This document shows positions 2,304 to 53,228 of a stretch of 64,000 nucleotides of DNA, piece by piece. The DNA is from Candidatus Obscuribacter phosphatis (GTDB lineage: Bacteria > Cyanobacteriota > Vampirovibrionia > Obscuribacterales > Obscuribacteraceae). Made by a program: the position numbers and the translations under genes. The stretch covers positions 54,477-118,476 of the forward strand of contig MOYA01000004.1 in assembly GCA_001899315.1 (NCBI GenBank), read 5' to 3'. How positions within the stretch are numbered: the stretch's first letter is position 1; the number at the start of each line of letters is the position of its first letter. Below the pieces are notes generated by a model that made no database searches, was not told the DNA's origin, and saw only the letters and a program-made list of their open reading frames with translations.

Positions 2304-4022
2304 TTGGTATTTCGGTCTATCGGTAATTCGGTTTTGTCCAGTTTCAGCGAACTACTAAGCCCGGTTCATTCCCCCGAGAAAAAGAAGATTCTCGAGGCCA
2401 TTGCAAAGCGCGGTCCGCGCCTAGTGCCAATTGATGTGGCCGCCGAAACCGGCTTGGCATTGCCTTTAGTAATAAGCGAATTAAACAATATCGCCGCCGA
2501 AACCAGCGCCCATCTGGAAGTCACCGAATCGGGCAATATCTCTTACATTTTCCAGAACAATCTTGACCAGGCCTACCTGGCAAACGCATCCCGTCAGGTT
2601 TTTCTACAGGCCTGGCGAGTCTTTGCCAATGCTTCCATGATTGTGCTGCGCTTTCTTTGCGCCGCTCTATTCTTTCTTATCCGCATATCTTTCGGGATCA
2701 TGCTGATAGTAGCCGCAGTGGCGGTGGTCGTCCTGATTGTTGTCGCCATCATCGGTGGTCTAAAAGCCCTTTCAGGCAATCAAGACTCAGACGGTCCAGA
2801 CTTTGACTTTGATTTCGGCAACCTTTTCGACTTCGGCTGGCACGGCGGCTATTACCACCGCCCATTTTATCTTTACTGGTTATTTGATTGGCTCTGGGAC
2901 TGGTTCTTCTTCTGGCGTTATGTCATTCCCTCACCGGCTGGCAGTTACGGCAGAAACATTCCCAACGAAGAAGAACAAAAGAAAAAGGGAAATTTCCTCA
3001 ACAATGTCTTTTCCTACTTGTTTGGAGACGGCAATCCTAATACCAATTTCGAAGAAACCAAATGGCAGACTGTAGCCCGGATCATTGAGCTCAACCATGG
3101 AGTTGTTACTGCCGATCAGCTGGCACCCTATATCGGTGAAGACCCAAAGAATGAAGACTGGATGATCCCAATCTTGCAACGCTATAACGGCTCTCCTGAG
3201 GTATCAGAGAGCGGTCATATCATCTATGTATTCAGAGCTTTTCAAAATCAGTCAGGTGGACACAGCATTCCGATGGGATCGCTCGATGCTGCTCGAAGCC
3301 AAACCAGACCGATTGACGAACTAGCTGGACTTTACCAAAGCCACATCAAGAGACAGTCTGCCACCAAGAAAAGTGAGACTCAACTCAGATTTATTGACAA
3401 AACTCTACAAGAAGAGGAGTGGCAGTTTCTCACCATCGACGGTGGCGCCCTCACTTCAATAGTTCTCTTTGCTGCTTTTGTTTCGATTGGCAGCCTGGCG
3501 CTGTTGTTCAATGCAGCAGCCATTCCGATATTAGCGACCCTTAAGCCTTTGCTGTTTTTGCTTGCCGGCTATGGCGGCATGTTCTTTTTCATACCGGCGG
3601 TGCGCTACGCCATTTATAAAGGCATAAACGAAGGCATCGAAAAGAGAAACAGCGCCAAGCAGGCCTACGCCACCGCGCTCTCGAGACCGAGCGAAGATCT
3701 GGCCAAAAAGCTAGACGAAGCAGCTTCAATTAGAATCAGCGGCATTCCTCAAAAGCCCGACCGCACAGTCTACAGCACCGAACGCAATGCCCAAGAGCAA
3801 TACATCGAAGAACAGCTAGAGCTGGGACTAGCAAGCAAAAACCCTGAAAAATCTAGCATAGACGGAAAGCCTAATGCAGCTGATGCAGCTCATGCAGCCG
3901 ATGCAGCTAAAGACGATGGGCACGATAATGCTGATGCCCAAGAGAATGATAAAGACCCAGGACAAATACTAAAGTTCGAGCGCAAACTAAAAATCGAAGA
4001 GCCCGAAGACTTCTCACCATAG
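2304..4022 (+). CDS. multi-pass membrane protein, unknown function
   Basis: 572-aa ORF; TTG start is uncertain. Contains hydrophobic/aromatic TM blocks. Two soluble modules both end in EV(T/S)ESG(N/H)I(S/I)Y(I/V)F. C-terminus is Ala/Asp-rich. No family assigned. Confidence 0.6.
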   Translation: MVFRSIGNSVLSSFSELLSPVHSPEKKKILEAIAKRGPRLVPIDVAAETGLALPLVISELNNIAAETSAHLEVTESGNISYIFQNNLDQAYLANASRQVFLQAWRVFANASMIVLRFLCAALFFLIRISFGIMLIVAAVAVVVLIVVAIIGGLKALSGNQDSDGPDFDFDFGNLFDFGWHGGYYHRPFYLYWLFDWLWDWFFFWRYVIPSPAGSYGRNIPNEEEQKKKGNFLNNVFSYLFGDGNPNTNFEETKWQTVARIIELNHGVVTADQLAPYIGEDPKNEDWMIPILQRYNGSPEVSESGHIIYVFRAFQNQSGGHSIPMGSLDAARSQTRPIDELAGLYQSHIKRQSATKKSETQLRFIDKTLQEEEWQFLTIDGGALTSIVLFAAFVSIGSLALLFNAAAIPILATLKPLLFLLAGYGGMFFFIPAVRYAIYKGINEGIEKRNSAKQAYATALSRPSEDLAKKLDEAASIRISGIPQKPDRTVYSTERNAQEQYIEEQLELGLASKNPEKSSIDGKPNAADAAHAADAAKDDGHDNADAQENDKDPGQILKFERKLKIEEPEDFSP

Positions 4023-4477
4023 CCGCCCCAAGCCCAGAACCCCTGCCTTGAAGCTCGAAGTTAGAGCCTGGTTTTAGACTCTCGCGCTAGCCTGGCCAAG
4101 GCAACTGAACTATCAGTAGCTATTTTGAGACTTTCTCGACGCCTTTATGAGTGCGATTAAACGCTGACAGAGCTTCTATTACAGGCGTTTTATTGCTTGC
4201 TTGAGGCGATTTCTCTAGGGTGAAATCTAATACTCTAACTCCTCCAACACCAAGACCAGAAAAAAAGACTCTTCCCCAAGATCTACCGACAGCTTCAGAT
4301 ATAGTCGCGCTCTAGCTCGGCCTGCTTGTCGACACGCGCTTCTGTAGCCCTGTCTGTCGCTCGGACAGTTCTCAACCTGCAATGTGACCTGGTTTTCACG
4401 CTCATCATCATTTCTGCTTCGTCTTAGAAAAGCCGAAATGTGTTGCCTATTTCGAAACTTTCCATCTGGAGACAGAT

Positions 4478-5215
4478 ATGGCTGAACAAACGACTTCCCG
4501 TCGGCAACTGACCGGTACGCTCTTTCTCATCGGCGGAAGAGCCAACATGACGCTCAAGCGCTTTGTCGAATTAGCTGGAGGCAAAGCCGCTTCCATCGTC
4601 ATCATCCCGCATGCCAGCGGAGTTGCCGAAGAGACCTGCGCCGATCTGCACAAAGCTTTCGACGAGCTTGGAGCCGGTCTGGTTACAAGCATCATGCCGC
4701 CTGCCGAAGGCGACACAATCCCTCAACGGCTCCCAGCCGGCACCAATGCGGTCTACATCACCGGCGGCGATCAGAAGCGCCTGATCGAACTGGTGTCTCC
4801 CGAACTGCTGTCAGACATAATCGCCGTTCTGGACAATGGCGGTGTCGTGGCTGGTACCAGTGCCGGTACTGCGGCCGCAGCCGAAACCATGATCGCCAGA
4901 GGCATGGATAGCGGCATCATCGATGTGGAAGCGCTGGAGCTCTCCCCCGGCTTCTCCCTGGCTCCCGGCTTCGTCTTCGATACCCATGTCGGAGAACGAG
5001 ACAGGCAGAATCGCCTGACAGTAGCCATTCACAGGCTGCCCAGCTTCTTCGGCATCGGGCTCGACGAAGACACCGCAGTCGAGCTGACGGCTTCCGGTGC
5101 TGTGGTTTCCGGCAAAGGCTTGGCGCGGTTCTATCGACTCCCCAAAGGCTCGAAGAATCTGCTCGAGAATGTCCAACTGACGGAACTCGCAGACGGTCAA
5201 ACCTGGACCATCTAA
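4478..5215 (+). CDS. peptidase S51 family (cyanophycinase / peptidase E-like)
   Basis: GGAGA before the ATG. Motifs LFLIGGR, ITGGDQKRL, AGTSAGTAA (nucleophile Ser context) and FDTHVGERDRQNRL match the S51 cyanophycinase pattern. Confidence 0.75.
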   Translation: MAEQTTSRRQLTGTLFLIGGRANMTLKRFVELAGGKAASIVIIPHASGVAEETCADLHKAFDELGAGLVTSIMPPAEGDTIPQRLPAGTNAVYITGGDQKRLIELVSPELLSDIIAVLDNGGVVAGTSAGTAAAAETMIARGMDSGIIDVEALELSPGFSLAPGFVFDTHVGERDRQNRLTVAIHRLPSFFGIGLDEDTAVELTASGAVVSGKGLARFYRLPKGSKNLLENVQLTELADGQTWTI

Positions 5216-45462: not shown

Positions 45463-46728
45463 TTAGTTTTCCGAATCTGGGCCTGACTTTCCTTCACCGT
45501 CGGCCTTCACCCCCCGCAGAAGCGGCATGAGCAAGAAGCAAGCCAAGGTGAAGAGCCCGCTCACGATGATGAGCGGCGACAGGCTGCGGTCGAACCAGTG
45601 CACGAACATCCAGCTGCCGACAATGGCAGAGAGCTGGGCAAAGCCGTTGTAGACCGACATCAAGGCGGCGAAGGTAAAGCCTTCTGCCTTGGGAGGACAA
45701 GCCTTACCGGCCAGGCTGAGCACTGTCAGAGTGGCAATGGCGCCGGCAGCACCGAAGACCAGGCTGAGCCCGATCATGATTGCCCCGACTGCTTCGGAAT
45801 AGTTCACCACCGAGAGGTAGGAGAAGGTACCGATGGCGCCGGCCAAGATGGCGAAGGTGAGCTGGAAGCGCAGAGACTTCTTGGTGAAGTACCAACCGTA
45901 GAGGAAAGTACCGATAACCGAACCAGCCGAGCCAATGGCGCCAAGTGTGCCGATGAACTCTTGCGAGAACTTGAGCTTGTCGACCATGTGGTAGTACATG
46001 GGCGTACCGAAGCTCGGCGAGAAGTTGTAGAAAGCCAGGAAGGCAATCACACCCCAGAGCGTGGGCGATTTGAAGGCATGACCGAGCGAAAACGCGGTCT
46101 TCTTCATTTCACCGACATTCATCTGGGCCTTCTCTTCACGCAAGGCGAACCAAGAAAGCAGTGCCACCGCTGCCGGTGCGCACATGGTGATCAGGGCAGC
46201 CATGTGCAAAGCACTGGTCGGGTCAGTCGAGCCGGCAATCCAGCCGCCAGCCACCGAAGTAGCAATCTGGGCCGTGTAGAACCAGAACCACTGCACGCTC
46301 TGGAACTTGCCCACCATGTTGTACTTCTGACCGTTCTCGACCATGACCGCATCGACGATTACGTCGGAAGCAGCGGTGCCCACGGCAGTGAGCAGCAATG
46401 CCGAGACGATGAGCGAAGCATCGCTCAAGCCGGAGAGCCAGAGAAAGGCGCCGGCCGACATGGTGTTCAAGGCCAGGAGCCAAGTCTTGCGACGATAGCC
46501 GAATAGGGGGATGAAGTCGCTCACCAATCCGTAAAGCGGCTTGATCAGCCAGGGAATGGTGAGAACAGCCAGGTAAGCCGTCGACTGCGCTTCATCGAAA
46601 TGCATCACCTCTTTGAGGTAGAAGCTGAGGGGTTGATTGATCAGGCCGCTAGCCTGTGCCAGACCTTGTGCAAAGTAGACAAAGCCGAACAGATAGATCA
46701 GCCTTTTGACGTATGAATCGTCGTTCAT
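45463..46728 (-). CDS. MFS transporter, folate-biopterin (BT1) family-like
   Basis: YLFGFVYFAQGL, LTIPWLIKPLYGLVSDFIPLFGYRRKTWL. 12-TM-like layout. Confidence 0.7.
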   Translation of the reverse strand: MNDDSYVKRLIYLFGFVYFAQGLAQASGLINQPLSFYLKEVMHFDEAQSTAYLAVLTIPWLIKPLYGLVSDFIPLFGYRRKTWLLALNTMSAGAFLWLSGLSDASLIVSALLLTAVGTAASDVIVDAVMVENGQKYNMVGKFQSVQWFWFYTAQIATSVAGGWIAGSTDPTSALHMAALITMCAPAAVALLSWFALREEKAQMNVGEMKKTAFSLGHAFKSPTLWGVIAFLAFYNFSPSFGTPMYYHMVDKLKFSQEFIGTLGAIGSAGSVIGTFLYGWYFTKKSLRFQLTFAILAGAIGTFSYLSVVNYSEAVGAIMIGLSLVFGAAGAIATLTVLSLAGKACPPKAEGFTFAALMSVYNGFAQLSAIVGSWMFVHWFDRSLSPLIIVSGLFTLACFLLMPLLRGVKADGEGKSGPDSEN

Positions 46729-46873
46729 ATGCGAACTTTCCGGTCGGTCCAGCCCGGGGGTACCGGGCTTTCCGACTCTCTTTCAATAGTTTCAGATAAG
46801 TGCTCCGAATGAAGGGTTAGGAACGTACGGCTCTTTAGCCGTATGGAAAGTGAGAATTAGCCCGAGCCAAAGC

Positions 46874-47290
46874 TCAGACTTTCACAGCCTTTTTGTTCAC
46901 CAGCTTCGGTCCCTCCACGAGCTTCAAAACCGGGCAGCGACCGGCGGTGCGCTCCATGGCGGTGAGGTCGGCGGCGCTGAGATTACCGCTGGCCTCGATG
47001 AGCTCTTCGATGAGAGGGATCTTCTTGGTGGCGTCATTGGGATCGGCCACCTCGCTGTAGGTGACCTTGACGCTCAGAGTCTGGATGTCCCAGTTACGGC
47101 TCTTTGCCACCATCATCAGTGTCTGCACGGTGCAGCTACCGATTGCGGCGAGCAAAAGCTCTTTGGGAGTCGGACCCAGGGATGTGCCGCCCACCGACTT
47201 ATCCTGGTCGGCAATGACAGTGAAGGCGCCGGCGCTGATGTCCACCTTGTAGGTGTGCCCGGCTGCCAGAGTGCATGTGGCTTGCGTCAT
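46874..47290 (-). CDS. OsmC/Ohr-family peroxiredoxin-like protein
   Basis: GGTSLGPTPKELLLAAIGSCT ... TAGRCPV (two conserved Cys contexts). The start abuts the PPK2 stop. Confidence 0.8.
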   Translation of the reverse strand: MTQATCTLAAGHTYKVDISAGAFTVIADQDKSVGGTSLGPTPKELLLAAIGSCTVQTLMMVAKSRNWDIQTLSVKVTYSEVADPNDATKKIPLIEELIEASGNLSAADLTAMERTAGRCPVLKLVEGPKLVNKKAVKV

Positions 47291-47291
47291 A

Positions 47292-48200
47292 TCAACCCTG
47301 CTCCTTCTTTTCCTTGTTTTTCTTTTCGTCCTTGCCCTTGTCGTCGGACTCAGGACCGAGAGCTTCTTCGAGCTGCTGATTGATGATGCGCAGCACGTTC
47401 ACCCGGCTGTAGCGCTTGTCTTCGCTGGAAACGATGAACCAAGGCGCATAGTCGGTGCCGGTGCGGAAGAACATCTCGTTGGCCGCCCGGGTGTACTTCT
47501 TCCACTTCTTACGCGCTTCGGCGTCGGAAGGAGAGAGCTTCCAGGGCTTGTCGCGAGCGCGGTCTTCGAAACGCTTCTTCTGCTCACCCTTGGTGATGTC
47601 GAGCCAGAGCTTGACCACGACGCCGCCCTGCTGCTCCAGGCTCCAGTCCATGGCGCGCAGACCGGCATAGGTGTGCTGCCACACCGCCGGCGGTTGCAGT
47701 TCATTGACCCGAACCACCAGCACTTCTTCGAACCAGGAGCGGTCGAAGACCCGCACCTGACCATAGGCCGGCATGCGGTCGTCCTTGAAGAAGCGCCAGA
47801 GAGGCGGATGGGCGCGCTCGTCTTCGGTGGGAGCACCGATGGGCACGCTGAGAAAGAGCTTGGCATCGAAGTCGAGGGCGCCGGCAACACGCTGCGTGGC
47901 ACCGCTCTTGCCGGCACCATCACGGCCCTGCAGCACAACCACGAGAAACTTGCGCTTGGCGGCCATACGACGCACGAGCTTGTTGAAACGCTCTTCTTCG
48001 GCGTTCATCTGGCGCTCGTAGTCTTTCTTCTTATCGATCTTGACGGTGTGATCCACCGCCGCCAGATAGTCGGGAATCTCACCCTTGCCCACTTGCTCGT
48101 AGGGAGCAAGTGGGTTTTCGAAAGTGCGGGCGATCTTGATCACCCCGTTCTCGAGCAGCCGGAAAGGCTTGCCGAGAGCTTTGCTGTCTTTGTCGGACAT
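47292..48200 (-). CDS. ppk2: polyphosphate kinase 2 (PPK2)
   Basis: GGGAGG SD. VVVLQGRDGAGKSG (Walker A), FDRSWFEEVLVVRV, KLWLDITKGEQKKRFEDR, PWKLSPSD, APWFIVSSEDKRYSR. Confidence 0.9.
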   Translation of the reverse strand: MSDKDSKALGKPFRLLENGVIKIARTFENPLAPYEQVGKGEIPDYLAAVDHTVKIDKKKDYERQMNAEEERFNKLVRRMAAKRKFLVVVLQGRDGAGKSGATQRVAGALDFDAKLFLSVPIGAPTEDERAHPPLWRFFKDDRMPAYGQVRVFDRSWFEEVLVVRVNELQPPAVWQHTYAGLRAMDWSLEQQGGVVVKLWLDITKGEQKKRFEDRARDKPWKLSPSDAEARKKWKKYTRAANEMFFRTGTDYAPWFIVSSEDKRYSRVNVLRIINQQLEEALGPESDDKGKDEKKNKEKKEQG

Positions 48201-48229
48201 AGGCTTGCCTCCCGGAGGAAGCTACCGCG

Positions 48230-50056
48230 TTAGCGGTAGCTCCGCCCCGTGTAGATGTTGTTGGAATCGAAACTGTCCACCTGGACACGACCGTCATCCA
48301 GGTACTTGAAGGTCTGCTGACCGCTGAAGGCCATATAGGTCCTGTAGTACTGACGCACCATCAGGCGACCTTCCTTGTCGCGCCCTTCCACCACCACGCC
48401 GTTGCAGTCGCGCAGCACGGTCCAGACGGAGACCGCCCAGCGCACTTCGTTGTGGATGTAGTTGAGAGCGAAAGCGGGCGGCTCGGCAATGCGATCGGCA
48501 GGACCACCACACTTGCTGGTCTCCACCGGCTGAGGAGCGACGATCACGGGCTCAGCCGGCTTCTCGACCGGCTTGACCGGCTTCACTGGAACTACCGCCA
48601 CAGGGGCCTTGACCACCGGGCTGGCGCAGCCGCGGCAGCCATCGATGAAGTTGACACCGACCTCGACTTGCGGGTTGACCGTGATGTTCGGCGCCTGCAC
48701 CGTCACCGCGGGCGGATTGACCGTGATATTCGGTGCCTGCACCGTCACCGCCGGCGGATTGACCGTGATGTTCGGCGCCTCGGGCTTGTCACGATTGACG
48801 AGGAAAGCCAGGAAGGCCAGGAAGGCGAGCAGGGCGAAGAAGCCCAGACCCAGTACCGCCATCAGGCCAGACCGATACCAGGGCTGGTGCCGACCGGCAC
48901 TGTTACCCGCCGAATTGCCAGACGAATTGCCGGACGAATTGCCCGGGGGATTGCTGGGAGGCGCCGGAGGAGCCGGGGGAGCCGACGGCGCTGGGGCCTG
49001 AGGCTCCACCTGACCGGGCTTGTTGCGCACCACCATACGGACGTCCACCCGAACTTCCCGCTCCTGTTCGGTGCCCTGAACGGTGGCATCATCGGCACCG
49101 AGACCACGCTGCTTCACCACCATGCTGACCGAGGAGGCGGCCTCCTTGCCGGCGGTGGTGGCAACACCGGTCATCTTCTCGAGGGCGTCTCCGGCGGCCA
49201 TCTGGCTGAAGTCGCGCAGCATGTCGCGATAGCGAGCTTCGGCACGGGCGACGGCCTCGGGGTCGAGGGCAGCGGGCGTCGCAGCCTGGCCCGAACCGGA
49301 CTGAGTGGTGGGCTGCGCATCGCCGGGCCCTGAGGCAGAAGCAGAGGCAGAAGCAGAGCCCCCACCGGAAGCATTGGCTGCGTTGGCAGCCTTGTCACCA
49401 CCTTCCTTGAGCCCAGCCTTGAAGGCAGCACGCTCCTTGGTGGAAGCGAGAGCCGTCTCGACCTGCTTGCGGGTCTCTTCCAGTTCGCCCGAATTGTCGA
49501 TGACGACAAGCGAAAGGGCCGCCTTCTTCTCTTGCGGGAACTGGGCACGGATACGCTTGAGCAGCTCTTCGTCGGAGCGCTTGTCGCGTTCACGCAGACG
49601 GGTCATCTGCACCGCTTCGTTGGCCACGACGGTCCAGACTTCGTCATACTGCGCCTGCGAATTGGTCTCGAAGAGAAGGGGCACGAGCACCGCCACTACG
49701 CCGCTGCCGGAAGCAGCCGCCAGGGAGATGCGCCGGCTCTTCAGTTCGGCAATGGCAGGGTGAAGAATGTCCTCCAGGTCTTTGCGAGCCTGAGGATCGT
49801 TGAATACAACTTGGCCGAGCTTTTCGCGGCTGACCTTGCCGTCGACGATGATGTCGGCGCCGAAGCGTTCGACGATCATGTCGCGCACAGGGCCTTCCCC
49901 GTCACGCAGCTCTGCAGCCAGATGGTCGGTATCGATGACGGCCACGCCCATCGACTCCAGAAGCTTGCCGACGGCAGACTTGCCGGTGCCGATACTGCCG
50001 GTCACACCGATTACATAGGCGGTCTTAGACTCGTTTTCAGTCATTTTGTCAGACAT
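48230..50056 (-). CDS. coaE: dephospho-CoA kinase (CoaE) fused to low-complexity linker, TM helix, repeats and C-terminal domain
   Basis: ORF trimmed to ATG 50056 (AGGAG SD). N-terminus YVIGVTGSIGTGKSAV...IDTD...PLLFE. Then Ala/Ser/Pro-rich tracts, TM helix LMAVLGLGFFALLAFLAFLAFLV, (NITVNPPAVTVQAP)x3, and a C-terminal domain of about 110 aa. Confidence 0.8.
   Translation of the reverse strand: MSDKMTENESKTAYVIGVTGSIGTGKSAVGKLLESMGVAVIDTDHLAAELRDGEGPVRDMIVERFGADIIVDGKVSREKLGQVVFNDPQARKDLEDILHPAIAELKSRRISLAAASGSGVVAVLVPLLFETNSQAQYDEVWTVVANEAVQMTRLRERDKRSDEELLKRIRAQFPQEKKAALSLVVIDNSGELEETRKQVETALASTKERAAFKAGLKEGGDKAANAANASGGGSASASASASGPGDAQPTTQSGSGQAATPAALDPEAVARAEARYRDMLRDFSQMAAGDALEKMTGVATTAGKEAASSVSMVVKQRGLGADDATVQGTEQEREVRVDVRMVVRNKPGQVEPQAPAPSAPPAPPAPPSNPPGNSSGNSSGNSAGNSAGRHQPWYRSGLMAVLGLGFFALLAFLAFLAFLVNRDKPEAPNITVNPPAVTVQAPNITVNPPAVTVQAPNITVNPQVEVGVNFIDGCRGCASPVVKAPVAVVPVKPVKPVEKPAEPVIVAPQPVETSKCGGPADRIAEPPAFALNYIHNEVRWAVSVWTVLRDCNGVVVEGRDKEGRLMVRQYYRTYMAFSGQQTFKYLDDGRVQVDSFDSNNIYTGRSYR
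48675..48779. repeat. 42-bp in-frame tandem repeat, 2.5 copies
   Basis: TTGACCGTGAT(G/A)TTCGG(C/T)GCCTGCACCGTCACCGC(G/C)GGCGGA. Encodes NITVNPPAVTVQAP on the minus strand. Confidence 0.9.
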
Positions 50057-50552
50057 GGTTACTCCTACTTGTTTGAGCATTGAGAGTTGAGAGACAGTTG
50101 ACCCAAGCACAGCCACCCTTCCGAGTTTCGGACAGTTAAGACCCACCTTGACGCTCAGACATGCCAAAGCCACCGACCCACAAGTGAGTCGGCGTCAGCG
50201 GCAGAAAGAGACGGTAGGTCTTAAGAGAAGGTGTGTGAGACTTGGATCACCAGGAAAATATGTAAGAAAGAACTTCTGGACACTACGTATTAAGCGCCCT
50301 TATATACAAGTCATGAGATCAGGTATTAGTAAGCGTTTAGATCTTGTCTGACCAAAAACTGGCAAAAGAAGACAGAAAGACTCATTAGAGCCAAGAAATG
50401 TTTATGACAGGGTGTTAGCGCGGCTGGGCCAGTCTAGCCAAGTACTGGCAAAAAACCGAGCGGACCTACCTCGGTATTGATGTCGATACAGCGACAAAGA
50501 AAAAAGATGGCCAGGACTAGAGCAAAGCAAATCCAGAACCACTGGGCGAAAG

Positions 50553-53228
50553 TTAGTTTCTCTGGGTCAAGCATTTCACGTCCGGATAGTAGTGCTTAAG
50601 TTGAGCTTGAATCACCTTGACATCTTCCAATTTACCACTCTGTCTGGCTCTTTCCAGCTTGGTCGATAGAGCCAGCCAGTTGGACGGATCGATCATGATG
50701 GCCTGGTCGACTATTTGGTCCACCAGCCAACGGCCTAGATCTTCAAGGTTTCTAATCACTGTTACTTTCTGACCTTTGTCGCCTGGCTGCTTACTGTCTT
50801 TGGCATGCTTGCTTTCTTTGGCATCTTTTGTCTGCACCTTCATGGGTTTGCGGCTGCTTTCCAGCCGGGCTAAAAAGTAGCCGGAATAAGCGAGAACTTC
50901 TGGGTCGGTAGGCGCCATTAAGACCGCCTTACTGATTTTTTGCTTGGCAGAATTGAGATAGTCTATGCTCGGATTCTGGCTGGCATACAAAAATCCCCAA
51001 ACGGCAAGCACTCTTGCTTGTATAGACTTGTCGCGTGAACTTTCAGCTAAGTTATAGGCTTTGAGAAGCTGCGCCTCAGCCTCTTCTAAAACCTTTTCAC
51101 GTTCACGCCCTTCGCCATGCCCATCCAGAGGTTTATCAACTAAGCCGATTTTTTCTTTCGCCTTGGGACTGCTTTTTAGATCGCCCTGCTCTGCATTACC
51201 GGCATGATCACCTGAAATATTACTCGCAGCGCCGCTGAGCAGTTGACTGGTGAGAGGTCTAAACAAAAACTCAGGACTAAAGTCACCACCAGCTTTCTGA
51301 CAAAGGGCTTGCGCCAACTCAATACGCACCAGAGCCTCTGCGCCGAAGAGTTCTTTGTGATGCGCAGTATCGGCTAGCTTCTCCAACTCTCTAATTGTAG
51401 GACCGAGATTGCGACTTTTGAGCAATTCCAAACGAAGCGGAGCGAGCTTGTGCTGGTACTCCCAAAACGATTTCTGTGACTTACTTTGGCTTAGAATAAG
51501 CCTTTGATTTCTATAGTCGAAAGTTACTTTGTATCGACTCAAAAGCGGATTGCCGATGATCGCTAAATCTGAAGAAGTAATAATGCCGGTCTGCTGGCTG
51601 CCTTCCTTACCAGGAGCAACACTAAACACCGGTCCATCGATACGCAGATTATCCAATTCCAGATAGTTGAACTTGACTGAACCAGTTTCAACCAACTTGC
51701 CGTCCAAGCCCTTCAGCTGTCCTGTGCGATAGAGCGGATTAGGAATAAGCGACTTGACTCGACTTTCAGAAACATTGTTAAAGGCAGCACCGGTATCAAG
51801 CAAGAAAGAAACCTTTTGCTTACCGTCAAAACTACCTTCCACAGCTAGTCCAGACATGCCCAGACTGGGTTTGGTATTAACTATGATGGCACCATCAGCC
51901 ACCTTGCTTTTGCGAGGATCATCAAAAGTAACCTTGCCGTTCTCATAATCAACTGTGACCAAGAAACGCTTCAAGACATTGGCGCCGATTAAACCAGCCG
52001 GTTTTTCTTTTTGTATTGTTTCAAACCCAGATAGGTCAGCCACAGCGCAAGTAACGTCTTTTAGTTCCATGTCACCCAGGGTGAATGTATTGAACTTGAC
52101 TCCGTCAGCCTTGATAGAACCGGCTCCGGTGGTCATGGCAATACTTTCTTCCGGCTTGGTTGCCGCTTGTGCCAGCCCGGAGAGTTCCTTCATAAAGCGC
52201 TTGTCTAAAATAGACTGGGTAGCACCGGTGTCGAGGATGAACTTAAGTTCGTTTGTGCCGTTAATTTTAGCCCTGACCAAGATTTCATTGCCGACATAAT
52301 CAAATGGAATGGTGACCGGTCCAGCTTGCAGGCGCAAGGGTAGCTTCTCTTCCGGCATGGCAAAATCGGCATCGGTGATTGTCTCGTCGATCTTTAAAGA
52401 GTCGATGCGGGTTTCAGATACCAACTCTTTGCCGCTGAACTCTTTGACGACGAAAGGCTGCATTGTCCCTTCTACTTCGCGATAATCTTCGTAATGGTAG
52501 AGCTTGTCTATCTTTATGCCGCGCTCTAGATCAACACCAGGATAACTGCTGGCTAAGACCAGATAATTCTCCTTGTCTATGTAAAAGCTGGTTGGCACGC
52601 CGTCATTGGCGTAAATCAACAAAGTTTCACAAGGGCGACCGGCGATGACCACCGGCTTACCAAGCTCTAGTGAAGCCTCAGGAATAGATTCGAGCAATAA
52701 GAGTCCATGGTTGATGTCTTCTTCGATGCGCTTGGCGGTGATCGCATCAGCAGGCATAACAGTATCGCCCTGCTTGGTCCAACAAATTTTGCCGTCATAG
52801 ACAGTTGTATGAGGCTGACCAAGCAAATTAATGGTGATCATCTCTTTCTCGCGCTTAACCAAAAGGTCGCAACCGAAAGAGTTAGTCGACTTGGACAAAG
52901 CCGAAGTCTGGACAATTTTGCCGCTGGCTCGACAGGGTTTATCGTTGAATTTCTTATATGCTTCAAAACCGCCCAATTTAGCCAAGACTTTCTCAGCCAG
53001 CTTGACCGCCTCGCTATCACGCCTGGCTTTCAGCTTGACAGCTTCATGCCCTTTGCTGCGACTCTCAGATAGAGCATAGGCAGAAGGCGTATTTGCTAGA
53101 GAAAGAAAGGCAGAAAGGCTAGATATTGGCAAAATCGGCAGAGACAGTGCCAGCGCTGCTAGCGGCGCAACTACCAGAGTTGCTCGTTGTTTACTGACAC
53201 GATGTCTCTTTTGAAAGAAGCTAGGCAC
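50553..53228 (-). CDS. secreted protein with two retropepsin-like aspartic protease domains
   Basis: GTG start with AGGAA upstream; signal peptide. Two D-T-G-A motifs (KFILDTGATQSILD and SFLLDTGAAFNNVS), each followed about 90 aa later by an (I/L)IG(A/N) flap/dimer-type motif. Helical C-terminus. Confidence 0.7.
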   Translation of the reverse strand: MPSFFQKRHRVSKQRATLVVAPLAALALSLPILPISSLSAFLSLANTPSAYALSESRSKGHEAVKLKARRDSEAVKLAEKVLAKLGGFEAYKKFNDKPCRASGKIVQTSALSKSTNSFGCDLLVKREKEMITINLLGQPHTTVYDGKICWTKQGDTVMPADAITAKRIEEDINHGLLLLESIPEASLELGKPVVIAGRPCETLLIYANDGVPTSFYIDKENYLVLASSYPGVDLERGIKIDKLYHYEDYREVEGTMQPFVVKEFSGKELVSETRIDSLKIDETITDADFAMPEEKLPLRLQAGPVTIPFDYVGNEILVRAKINGTNELKFILDTGATQSILDKRFMKELSGLAQAATKPEESIAMTTGAGSIKADGVKFNTFTLGDMELKDVTCAVADLSGFETIQKEKPAGLIGANVLKRFLVTVDYENGKVTFDDPRKSKVADGAIIVNTKPSLGMSGLAVEGSFDGKQKVSFLLDTGAAFNNVSESRVKSLIPNPLYRTGQLKGLDGKLVETGSVKFNYLELDNLRIDGPVFSVAPGKEGSQQTGIITSSDLAIIGNPLLSRYKVTFDYRNQRLILSQSKSQKSFWEYQHKLAPLRLELLKSRNLGPTIRELEKLADTAHHKELFGAEALVRIELAQALCQKAGGDFSPEFLFRPLTSQLLSGAASNISGDHAGNAEQGDLKSSPKAKEKIGLVDKPLDGHGEGREREKVLEEAEAQLLKAYNLAESSRDKSIQARVLAVWGFLYASQNPSIDYLNSAKQKISKAVLMAPTDPEVLAYSGYFLARLESSRKPMKVQTKDAKESKHAKDSKQPGDKGQKVTVIRNLEDLGRWLVDQIVDQAIMIDPSNWLALSTKLERARQSGKLEDVKVIQAQLKHYYPDVKCLTQRN

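Follow-up and report, generated by a model that had tools for sequence, protein, structure and literature searches.

A dephospho-CoA kinase gene fused to a predicted membrane-crossing module in one family of Obscuribacterales

In bacteria, dephospho-CoA kinase (CoaE), the enzyme of the final reaction in coenzyme A (CoA) formation, is regarded as a soluble housekeeping enzyme. One gene on a 64,000-nucleotide stretch of the Candidatus Obscuribacter phosphatis genome (assembly GCA_001899315.1, contig MOYA01000004.1, positions 54,477 to 118,476; referred to here as the window) raises the question of why such a kinase should continue into a transmembrane helix and a further domain that would face outward. 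A literature search found no paper on a bacterial membrane-crossing dephospho-CoA kinase. It is therefore asked here whether the fusion is a true gene, whether its kinase part is likely to be active, how the protein may lie in the membrane, and what a tethered kinase could contribute to the cell.

The fusion and its conservation

The gene, termed CoaE-long (protein P0001), occupies positions 48230..50056 on the minus strand as a single open reading frame of 608 aa plus the stop codon. Its ATG at 50056 lies eight bases past an AGGAG box and no internal stops are present, so the long coaE-fusion frame reported by the first-pass annotation of the window is uninterrupted. The protein comprises the kinase domain, a domain named MID, one transmembrane helix (TM) and a C-terminal domain named CT; in the family alignment, variable low-complexity tracts separate the three conserved elements MID, the transmembrane helix part and CT.

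When 5.8 billion proteins were searched for homologues, with the search restricted to similar lengths, 53 relatives were found at 30-96% identity, most of them with the full architecture, and their source names are Candidatus Obscuribacter, Obscuribacterales or Melainabacteria. In genome searches, about half of the genomes in the window's family carry the CoaE match within a single open frame of 550-840 codons, and the CT and MID profile matches land in those same frames. An alignment of 23 homologues shows that the linkers differ in length and stay in frame throughout, and no CoaE-long homologue carries a stop codon after the kinase domain.

These observations bear directly on the possibility of a sequencing or assembly artefact, in which a frameshift or a chimera would have joined coaE to the gene of a downstream membrane protein. 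A merge error is implausible because independent assemblies share the architecture, which recurs unbroken in about 50 independently assembled genomes and in 53 database clusters, down to 30% identity, with linkers that vary in length yet remain in frame and with no stop after the kinase; an artefact is thus scarcely conceivable. The first-pass annotation had also considered that the C-terminal part might normally be a separate gene, but no relative has one directly after a stand-alone coaE. The short "hypothetical protein" P0044 (347 aa), examined as a candidate for such a gene, is a fragment that begins mid-domain. The CoaE-long fusion is real, and it is conserved in one family of cyanobacterial relatives that do not photosynthesise, which belongs to the Obscuribacterales by the source names.

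The kinase domain and its stand-alone paralogue

The dephospho-CoA kinase domain (aa 14-193; 49478..50017, minus strand) matches PF01121 at E=1.6e-43 and 148.9 bits (cut-off 27), covering profile positions 1-179 of 180, and the NCBIfam dephospho-CoA kinase equivalog TIGR00152 at 146.7 bits (cut-off 65.55). It is the only part of CoaE-long recognised by Pfam and NCBIfam. The P-loop GVTGSIGTGKS (aa 17-27) contains the pattern GxxxxGK[ST] as GSIGTGKS (aa 20-27), and the IDTD (aa 41-44) and PLLFE (aa 126-130) motifs and the lid RLRERDKRS (aa 153-161) are also present; with both profile scores above their cut-offs, the normal CoaE that the first-pass annotation placed in the first 200 residues or so is confirmed. 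G25, K26 and S27 of the P-loop, D44 of IDTD, and P126, L127, L128, R153 and R157 are invariant in the 23 homologues. In the CoaE of Mycobacterium tuberculosis, Lys14, Asp32, Leu114 and Arg140 are critical by mutagenesis (PMC3019153); their counterparts in CoaE-long, mapped by motif only, are K26, D44, L127/L128 and R153/R157. The domain aligns end to end with the solved dephospho-CoA kinases 2F6R, 1UF9, 1JJV, 2IF2 and 1VHL, the same motifs falling into register, and the best PDB sequence match is 2F6R (E=1.1e-29).

Compared with the stand-alone CoaE proteins of Escherichia coli (1VHL/1N3B), Haemophilus influenzae (1JJV) and Thermus thermophilus (1UF9), aa 1-205 of CoaE-long form a complete equivalent, which aligns over the full length and has the P-loop, the DxD motif, the PLL cleft and the lid arginine. 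However, CoaE-long adds 400 residues (MID, TM, repeats and CT) and is encoded in addition to a normal coaE, as a second copy. The CoaE-UPF0157 protein of M. tuberculosis (PRK03333; PMC2765170, PMC3019153) shares the catalytic residues and also bears a C-terminal extension outside the kinase fold, but that extension is soluble and cytoplasmic, whereas the extension of CoaE-long is predicted to cross the membrane and contains no UPF0157. The NF002879/PRK03333 model scores 123.3 bits against CoaE-long, below its cut-off of 215, and covers only the kinase (profile positions 4-188 of 395).

Based on these features, we infer, as the most economical reading, that CoaE-long is an active dephospho-CoA kinase. 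Alternatively, the CoaE-like domain may have been repurposed, either to phosphorylate another nucleotide substrate with a 3'-OH or to serve as a nucleotide-binding or scaffold module only; the core function would then lie in MID-TM-CT, for example in organising the polyphosphate kinase PPK2 of the neighbouring gene, or polyphosphate itself, at the membrane. Such a change would be in keeping with the redundancy of this paralogue in a genome that has a full CoA pathway, with an orthologue in genome G211 that lacks the kinase and keeps MID-TM-CT and the PPK2 neighbour, and with the CoaE-long of genome G099, whose P-loop is divergent and whose CoaE score is weaker, at 98 bits. On the other hand, the TIGR00152 equivalog score is well above the cut-off, the CoaE model score is 152 bits against 85+45 bits for the stand-alone copy, all catalytic and substrate-cleft residues are invariant, and the long form evolves more slowly than its short paralogue. 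Repurposing is consequently judged quite improbable.

The search for a second coaE proposed in the first-pass annotation was successful: a stand-alone coaE of 231 aa, 40% identical, lies 86 kb from CoaE-long in the same genome. Since coaX, coaBC and coaD are also present, the CoA pathway is complete without the fused gene. CoaE-long is an accessory paralogue and not the only dephospho-CoA kinase of the cell. An essential CoA enzyme tethered to the membrane had been described at first; the tethered architecture is supported, but the protein is not the sole CoaE and need not be essential.

The opposite assignment, with CoaE-long as the main housekeeping kinase and the short copy as accessory or diverging, draws on the short coaE of this genus (L002 1432-2127, minus strand; about 190350-190961 of G000:C4). 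Its product carries, within the CoA-binding region, an insertion of ~25 aa that splits the Pfam match into a weaker 45 + 85 bits (152 bits for the fused copy), and it is the more divergent of the genome's two CoaE copies. Moreover, although long forms nearly always coexist with a short form, four genomes (G007, G022, G156 and G284) have the long form only. These four are, however, 84-92% complete, and congeners of G007 carry both forms; the short copy retains the P-loop, DTD and PLLFE motifs; and about half of the family, together with every other family of the class covered by the search, has the short form only, no long form having turned up in the genomes searched outside the family. It is very improbable that CoaE-long is the main housekeeping enzyme. 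Five further genomes of the family gave no PF01121 match to a long or a short form (G020, G041 and G051, of one genus and 90-91% complete; G132 and G220, 88-89%), possibly through assembly gaps or because their dephospho-CoA kinase is very divergent or of an alternative kind.

The origin of the long form was addressed with a maximum likelihood tree of 50 CoaE domains with Shimodaira-Hasegawa-like approximate likelihood ratio (SH-aLRT) supports. The 14 long forms make up one clade (SH-aLRT 95), whose sister group consists of the family's 21 short forms (94); long and short forms jointly split off from the class's other families (96). This topology indicates one old coaE duplication near the base of the family, followed by vertical descent with losses. 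For the same species pairs, kinase divergence is lower in the long than in the short forms (0.71 vs 0.93 and 0.85 vs 1.26 substitutions per site). Horizontal acquisition of the kinase was considered on account of a GC content of 63% against about 47% in the flanks and was rejected, because the sister group of the long forms is made up of short CoaEs of their own family; the same GC offset recurs at orthologous loci in other genera, and therefore no recent transfer is indicated.

MID, the transmembrane helix and CT

The kinase is followed by an Ala/Ser/Gly/Pro-rich low-complexity linker (aa 206-264; 49265..49441, minus strand), which varies in length and sequence among homologues and contains short tandem repeats at 49332-49358. 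It leads into MID (aa 265-348; 49013..49264, minus strand), which was delimited by a conserved alignment block and an AlphaFold2 (AF2) model built with the family alignment, with a predicted local distance difference test score (pLDDT) of 80 and a predicted template modelling score (pTM) of 0.64. The model contains a 29-residue helix (aa 266-294) and a long beta-hairpin (aa 303-317 and 330-344) whose loop spans 0 to ~50 residues; the helical segment predicted in the first-pass annotation is there, but it belongs to a conserved domain of helix plus beta-hairpin. A Foldseek comparison of MID with the PDB returned nothing at E<1, and a PDB profile search gave one chance-level match (E 0.32). Of the 101 family genomes, 48 match the MID profile, a single time in each and never outside a long CoaE frame. 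As modelled, MID appears to be a new, confidently folded domain on the cytoplasmic side, found only in the CoaE-long family.

Between MID and the membrane, a Pro-rich and (GNS)n juxtamembrane tract (aa 349-397; 48866..49012, minus strand) on the predicted cytoplasmic side includes tandem repeats at 48911-48943 and 48957-48984. Where the window protein has these tracts, the distant homologues P0038, P0041, P0043, P0045 and P0046 have 13-17 Cys in the cytoplasmic juxtamembrane region (CxCxCxxxCxxxCxCxxxCxCxC), which may be a metal-binding or lipidated segment. The transmembrane helix LMAVLGLGFFALLAFLAFLAFLV (aa 398-420; 48797..48865, minus strand) reaches a Kyte-Doolittle 19-residue maximum of 2.69. 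It is the sole transmembrane-grade segment outside the kinase core, as had been noted at first reading, and is likewise single in all 23 aligned homologues.

Beyond the helix, a 42-bp tandem repeat (aa ~429-462; 48670..48780, minus strand) would lie on the periplasmic side. Tandem Repeats Finder (TRF; score 194) resolves 2.6 copies with 91% matches, which encode six x-[IV]-T-V-[NQ]-x-P heptads. The repeat proposed in the first-pass annotation is thus real, but its three peptide copies are two full NITVNPPAVTVQAP copies and a partial third. Units 1 and 2 differ at three nucleotides, each time synonymously, and V-T-V-N repeats recur in most homologues of the alignment. The chain continues with a CxxC motif (C474, C477) and a Pro/Val/Lys-rich spacer (aa 474-512; 48521..48637, minus strand). 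A Cys pair is found at this position in most homologues, and most have 0-1 Cys N-terminal of the helix and 4 Cys C-terminal of it. The four Cys earlier assigned to the C-terminal domain do exist (474, 477, 516 and 551), but only 516 and 551 are in the folded CT.

The CT domain (aa 516-608; 48233..48511, minus strand; AF2 pLDDT 86, pTM 0.72) is modelled over ~95 aa as two short helices and a six-stranded antiparallel beta-meander. C516 is invariant and C551 nearly so, among invariant C, P, F, W, G, G, Y, F and R columns. The CT profile matches 53 of 96 family genomes vs none of the 204 genomes of ten other families of the class, and a search of 1.84 billion representative proteins yielded no more than 35 matching clusters at E<=0.001. 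A Foldseek search of CT against the PDB gave nothing at E<0.1 (best E 0.14), a PDB profile search gave 0 matches at E<=10, and Pfam gave none. Two identities were considered and found no support. YD/RHS (PF05593) was matched by one homologue only, at E=0.061 and below the cut-off, while the Foldseek matches to teneurin had E 0.6-0.8 and TM-scores of 0.2-0.4, and a 1518-aa protein among the CT cluster matches is a WD40/coiled-coil protein that lends no support. For TonB_C/RodZ_C, Pfam gave no match with P0001 (E<=0.1) or with eight homologues (E<=1), and Foldseek gave none either.

CT also occurs in a few shorter frames of three types. In five genomes, it is part of proteins with a J-domain (HPD motif), a charged coiled coil, a TM and CT; these are 440-500 aa long, with a C-terminal extension (L055, L056, L057, L058 and L061; G242, G128, G216 and G261), and the J-domain of a database example, P0079, matches PF00226 at E=1.5e-10. 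In three genomes (L052-L054; G148, G160 and G266), a degenerate J-like domain is followed by TM and CT in proteins of ~335 aa. The third type is the kinase-less MID-TM-CT protein of G211. To judge from these sequences, the J-domain-TM-CT proteins are an undescribed family of putatively periplasm-reaching J-proteins. A known counterpart is E. coli DjlA, a membrane-anchored J-protein whose TM is N-terminal and which lacks a periplasmic domain. The proteins of the sister genera likewise would tether a cytoplasmic effector to the inner membrane, but they run in the order J-domain, coiled coil, TM and CT, and the comparison concerns the paralogues of the module, not the kinase. In general, CT looks like a lineage-specific modular periplasmic domain, which stands behind J-domains in sister genera.

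The reuse of CT bears on the topology. J-domains act on cytoplasmic Hsp70 (DnaK), CoaE needs ATP, and a single TM is present; for these reasons, CT would be extracytoplasmic in both types of protein. CoaE-long is accordingly predicted to be bitopic, with the kinase and MID cytoplasmic and CT periplasmic. The uneven spread of Cys over the two sides of the helix in most homologues agrees with this. This N-in/C-out arrangement is the only simple topology, and the outward-facing domain of the first-pass annotation probably stands, backed by the position of CT behind cytoplasmic J-domains. The eukaryotic CoA synthase (COASY), a dephospho-CoA kinase (DPCK), is anchored on the outer mitochondrial membrane (PMC7865483). 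Its membrane-anchored, cytosol-facing DPCK domain provides a precedent for the last CoA step at a membrane, but COASY has an N-terminal hydrophobic anchor, a PPAT fusion and no far-side domain. The two membrane arrangements arose independently, and no bacterial example of an anchored DPCK turned up in the literature search.

Gene neighbourhood and proposed role

A PPK2 gene (302 aa; 47292..48200, minus strand; PF03976 E=1.2e-61) starts 29 nt past the CoaE-long stop, behind a GGGAGG box, and the ATG of an OsmC-like gene (138 aa; 46874..47290, minus strand; PF02566 E=4.3e-13) lies 1 nt past the PPK2 stop. A BT1/major facilitator superfamily (MFS) transporter gene (421 aa; 45463..46728, minus strand; PF03092 E=2e-39) follows 145 nt downstream of OsmC. 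The tight operon with PPK2 and OsmC that had been proposed is borne out by these gaps of 29 and 1 nt and by synteny across genera, and BT1 also belongs to the block. In 13 genomes of 11 genera, the order is a secreted double aspartic protease, CoaE-long, PPK2, OsmC and BT1, with PPK2 syntenic at 10 of the 13 loci and OsmC at 12, and the synteny persists to ~35% kinase identity. GC at third codon positions (GC3) is 74-79% in CoaE-long, PPK2, OsmC and BT1 (75% in BT1), compared to 50% in the protease gene, 55% in the short coaE and 62% in EF-Tu. The tight spacing and the shared composition point to a common transcription unit for the four genes, as far as can be read from the sequence. A promoter scan found 0 promoter-like sites, and terminator-like sites were at chance level. 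The four genes (45463-50056) are a compositional outlier at 57-64% GC, against 49.2% GC and a median GC3 of 52% for the genome; a GC3 of 75% is reached by 2.5% of the genome's long open frames, and EF-Tu, RpsB and GroEL have 58-63%. Other GC-rich blocks of the window span about 14-20, 22-30 and 38-40 kb.

The closest solved relatives of the operon PPK2 are the C-terminal domain of 3CZP and polyphosphate:AMP phosphotransferases (AMP/ADP-phosphorylating). The genome has three PPK2 paralogues (G000:C1:2225491-2226162, C1:916942-917637 and C4:101837-102508), and the operon copy departs furthest from the Pfam model (209 bits vs 327 and 231). A salvage function, in which BT1 would import a CoA precursor for an incomplete pathway, is not supported, since coaX, coaBC and coaD are present.

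Upstream of CoaE-long, an 891-aa secreted protein with two Asp_protease_2 stretches (PF13650 E=6.2e-27) is encoded at window positions 50553-53228 (minus strand). In other genera, a conserved and divergently oriented open reading frame of ~140 aa with the motif CE(R/L)IL(R/Q)DVLR separates the protease gene from that of PPK2 or MID-TM-CT (L067 7717-8136, L070 2202-2648 and L062 2789-3202, all on the plus strand). The equivalent spacer of the window (50057-50552) is 496 bp long and AT-rich and has no open reading frame of ~140 aa.

Taken together, these results lead us to favour, with moderate confidence, a reading in which CoaE-long is an active dephospho-CoA kinase fixed at the envelope that provides a membrane-proximal, accessory last step of CoA formation together with PPK2, OsmC and BT1. 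The family's own coaE was duplicated, and one copy was fused to MID, one TM, a repeat and Pro-rich spacer and CT. In this scheme, the kinase would be tethered on the inner face of the cytoplasmic membrane, MID would probably oligomerise the protein, and the TM-spacer-CT module would position the kinase through periplasmic sites or partners recognised by CT, and possibly regulate it. Dephospho-CoA kinase uses ATP and releases ADP, and PPK2 enzymes of this kind can rephosphorylate AMP or ADP from polyphosphate. Co-expressed PPK2 could thus regenerate ADP and ATP from polyphosphate for the kinase, so that CoA formation would be sustained from polyphosphate. If OsmC, a protein of peroxide detoxification, and BT1 are co-expressed as well, the block may constitute a stress- or polyphosphate-linked CoA supply module. 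CoA has an antioxidant role through protein CoAlation in prokaryotes (reviewed in PMC7865483), and this role and the presence of OsmC suggest a stress setting.

Several observations weigh against this proposal. About half of the family genomes are without CoaE-long altogether, and PPK2 is absent from three CoaE-long loci. Where a genome lacks CoaE-long, PPK2-OsmC-BT1 still adjoin the upstream protease gene, and therefore the metabolic coupling may be merely positional; CoaE-long fills a slot in an older neighbourhood, which weakens the arguments from adjacency. The charges flanking the TM are nearly balanced, so that the topology rests on domain logic, and CT is without a structural or sequence relative. 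Finally, genome G211 encodes a MID-TM-CT protein of 433 aa without the kinase, with PPK2 still next to it (L062 1037-2338, minus strand), and the part outside the kinase may therefore act in its own right. The neighbours of this gene lie at 176-967, 3222-4130 and 4127-5110; inspection by eye points to a likely panC, recognised by a pantothenate synthetase motif, and to an ilvC-like gene, both closely upstream on this contig.

A different use of the same architecture would be receptor-type regulation. Receptor Ser/Thr kinases of the PknB type have a cytoplasmic N-terminal kinase, a juxtamembrane segment, one TM and an extracytoplasmic domain. CoaE-long shares this overall layout, but it has a P-loop small-molecule kinase, not a Hanks-type kinase, and its outer domain is not PASTA, so that the analogy concerns the layout only. 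In such a mechanism, CT would sense a periplasmic cue (a ligand, the redox state of its Cys, or cleavage by the secreted aspartic protease encoded next to it) and switch the kinase through the TM and oligomerisation of MID; in a PknB-like manner, the CoA output would be controlled from outside, beyond mere localisation. Regulation of this type, although unlikely in our view, is consistent with the conserved order in which an N-terminal kinase precedes a juxtamembrane domain, the single TM and then an extracytoplasmic domain, with the exclusive occurrence of MID in CoaE-long, between kinase and TM, with the conservation of CxxC and C516/C551 on the outer side, and with the secreted double Asp_protease_2 protein, which is directly upstream of CoaE-long in all 13 loci examined. 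However, the long and variable low-complexity linkers between kinase and MID, MID and TM, and TM and CT are poor transmitters of conformational change, and CT is also found on J-domains, which are recruiters and not switchable enzymes. A specific functional link to the protease is likewise weakened, because the protease family occurs in 99 of 101 family genomes whether CoaE-long is present or not, usually with one or more paralogues. It is thus doubtful that CoaE-long is an outside-in receptor in which CT, with its Cys pair and CxxC, would sense an envelope or redox cue and gate polyphosphate-fuelled CoA production. If it were, CT would be a new periplasmic sensor or anchor family that also controls membrane-tethered J-domain co-chaperones.

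The structural and evolutionary facts on CoaE-long are solid, and its physiological role, for which an envelope-fixed accessory kinase is preferred here, is proposed from them. CoaE-long has been kept under purifying selection for the whole existence of the family, and this conservation implies that the place or timing of the last CoA step can matter to the cell. The two new domains, both predicted to fold with confidence, lack recognised relatives, and CT, which is shared with the J-domain proteins, offers a handle on the envelope biology of the uncultured Obscuribacterales. This lineage has been linked in discussion to phosphorus-removal sludge, and the constant PPK2 neighbourhood of CoaE-long suggests a link between polyphosphate stores and CoA supply in these organisms.

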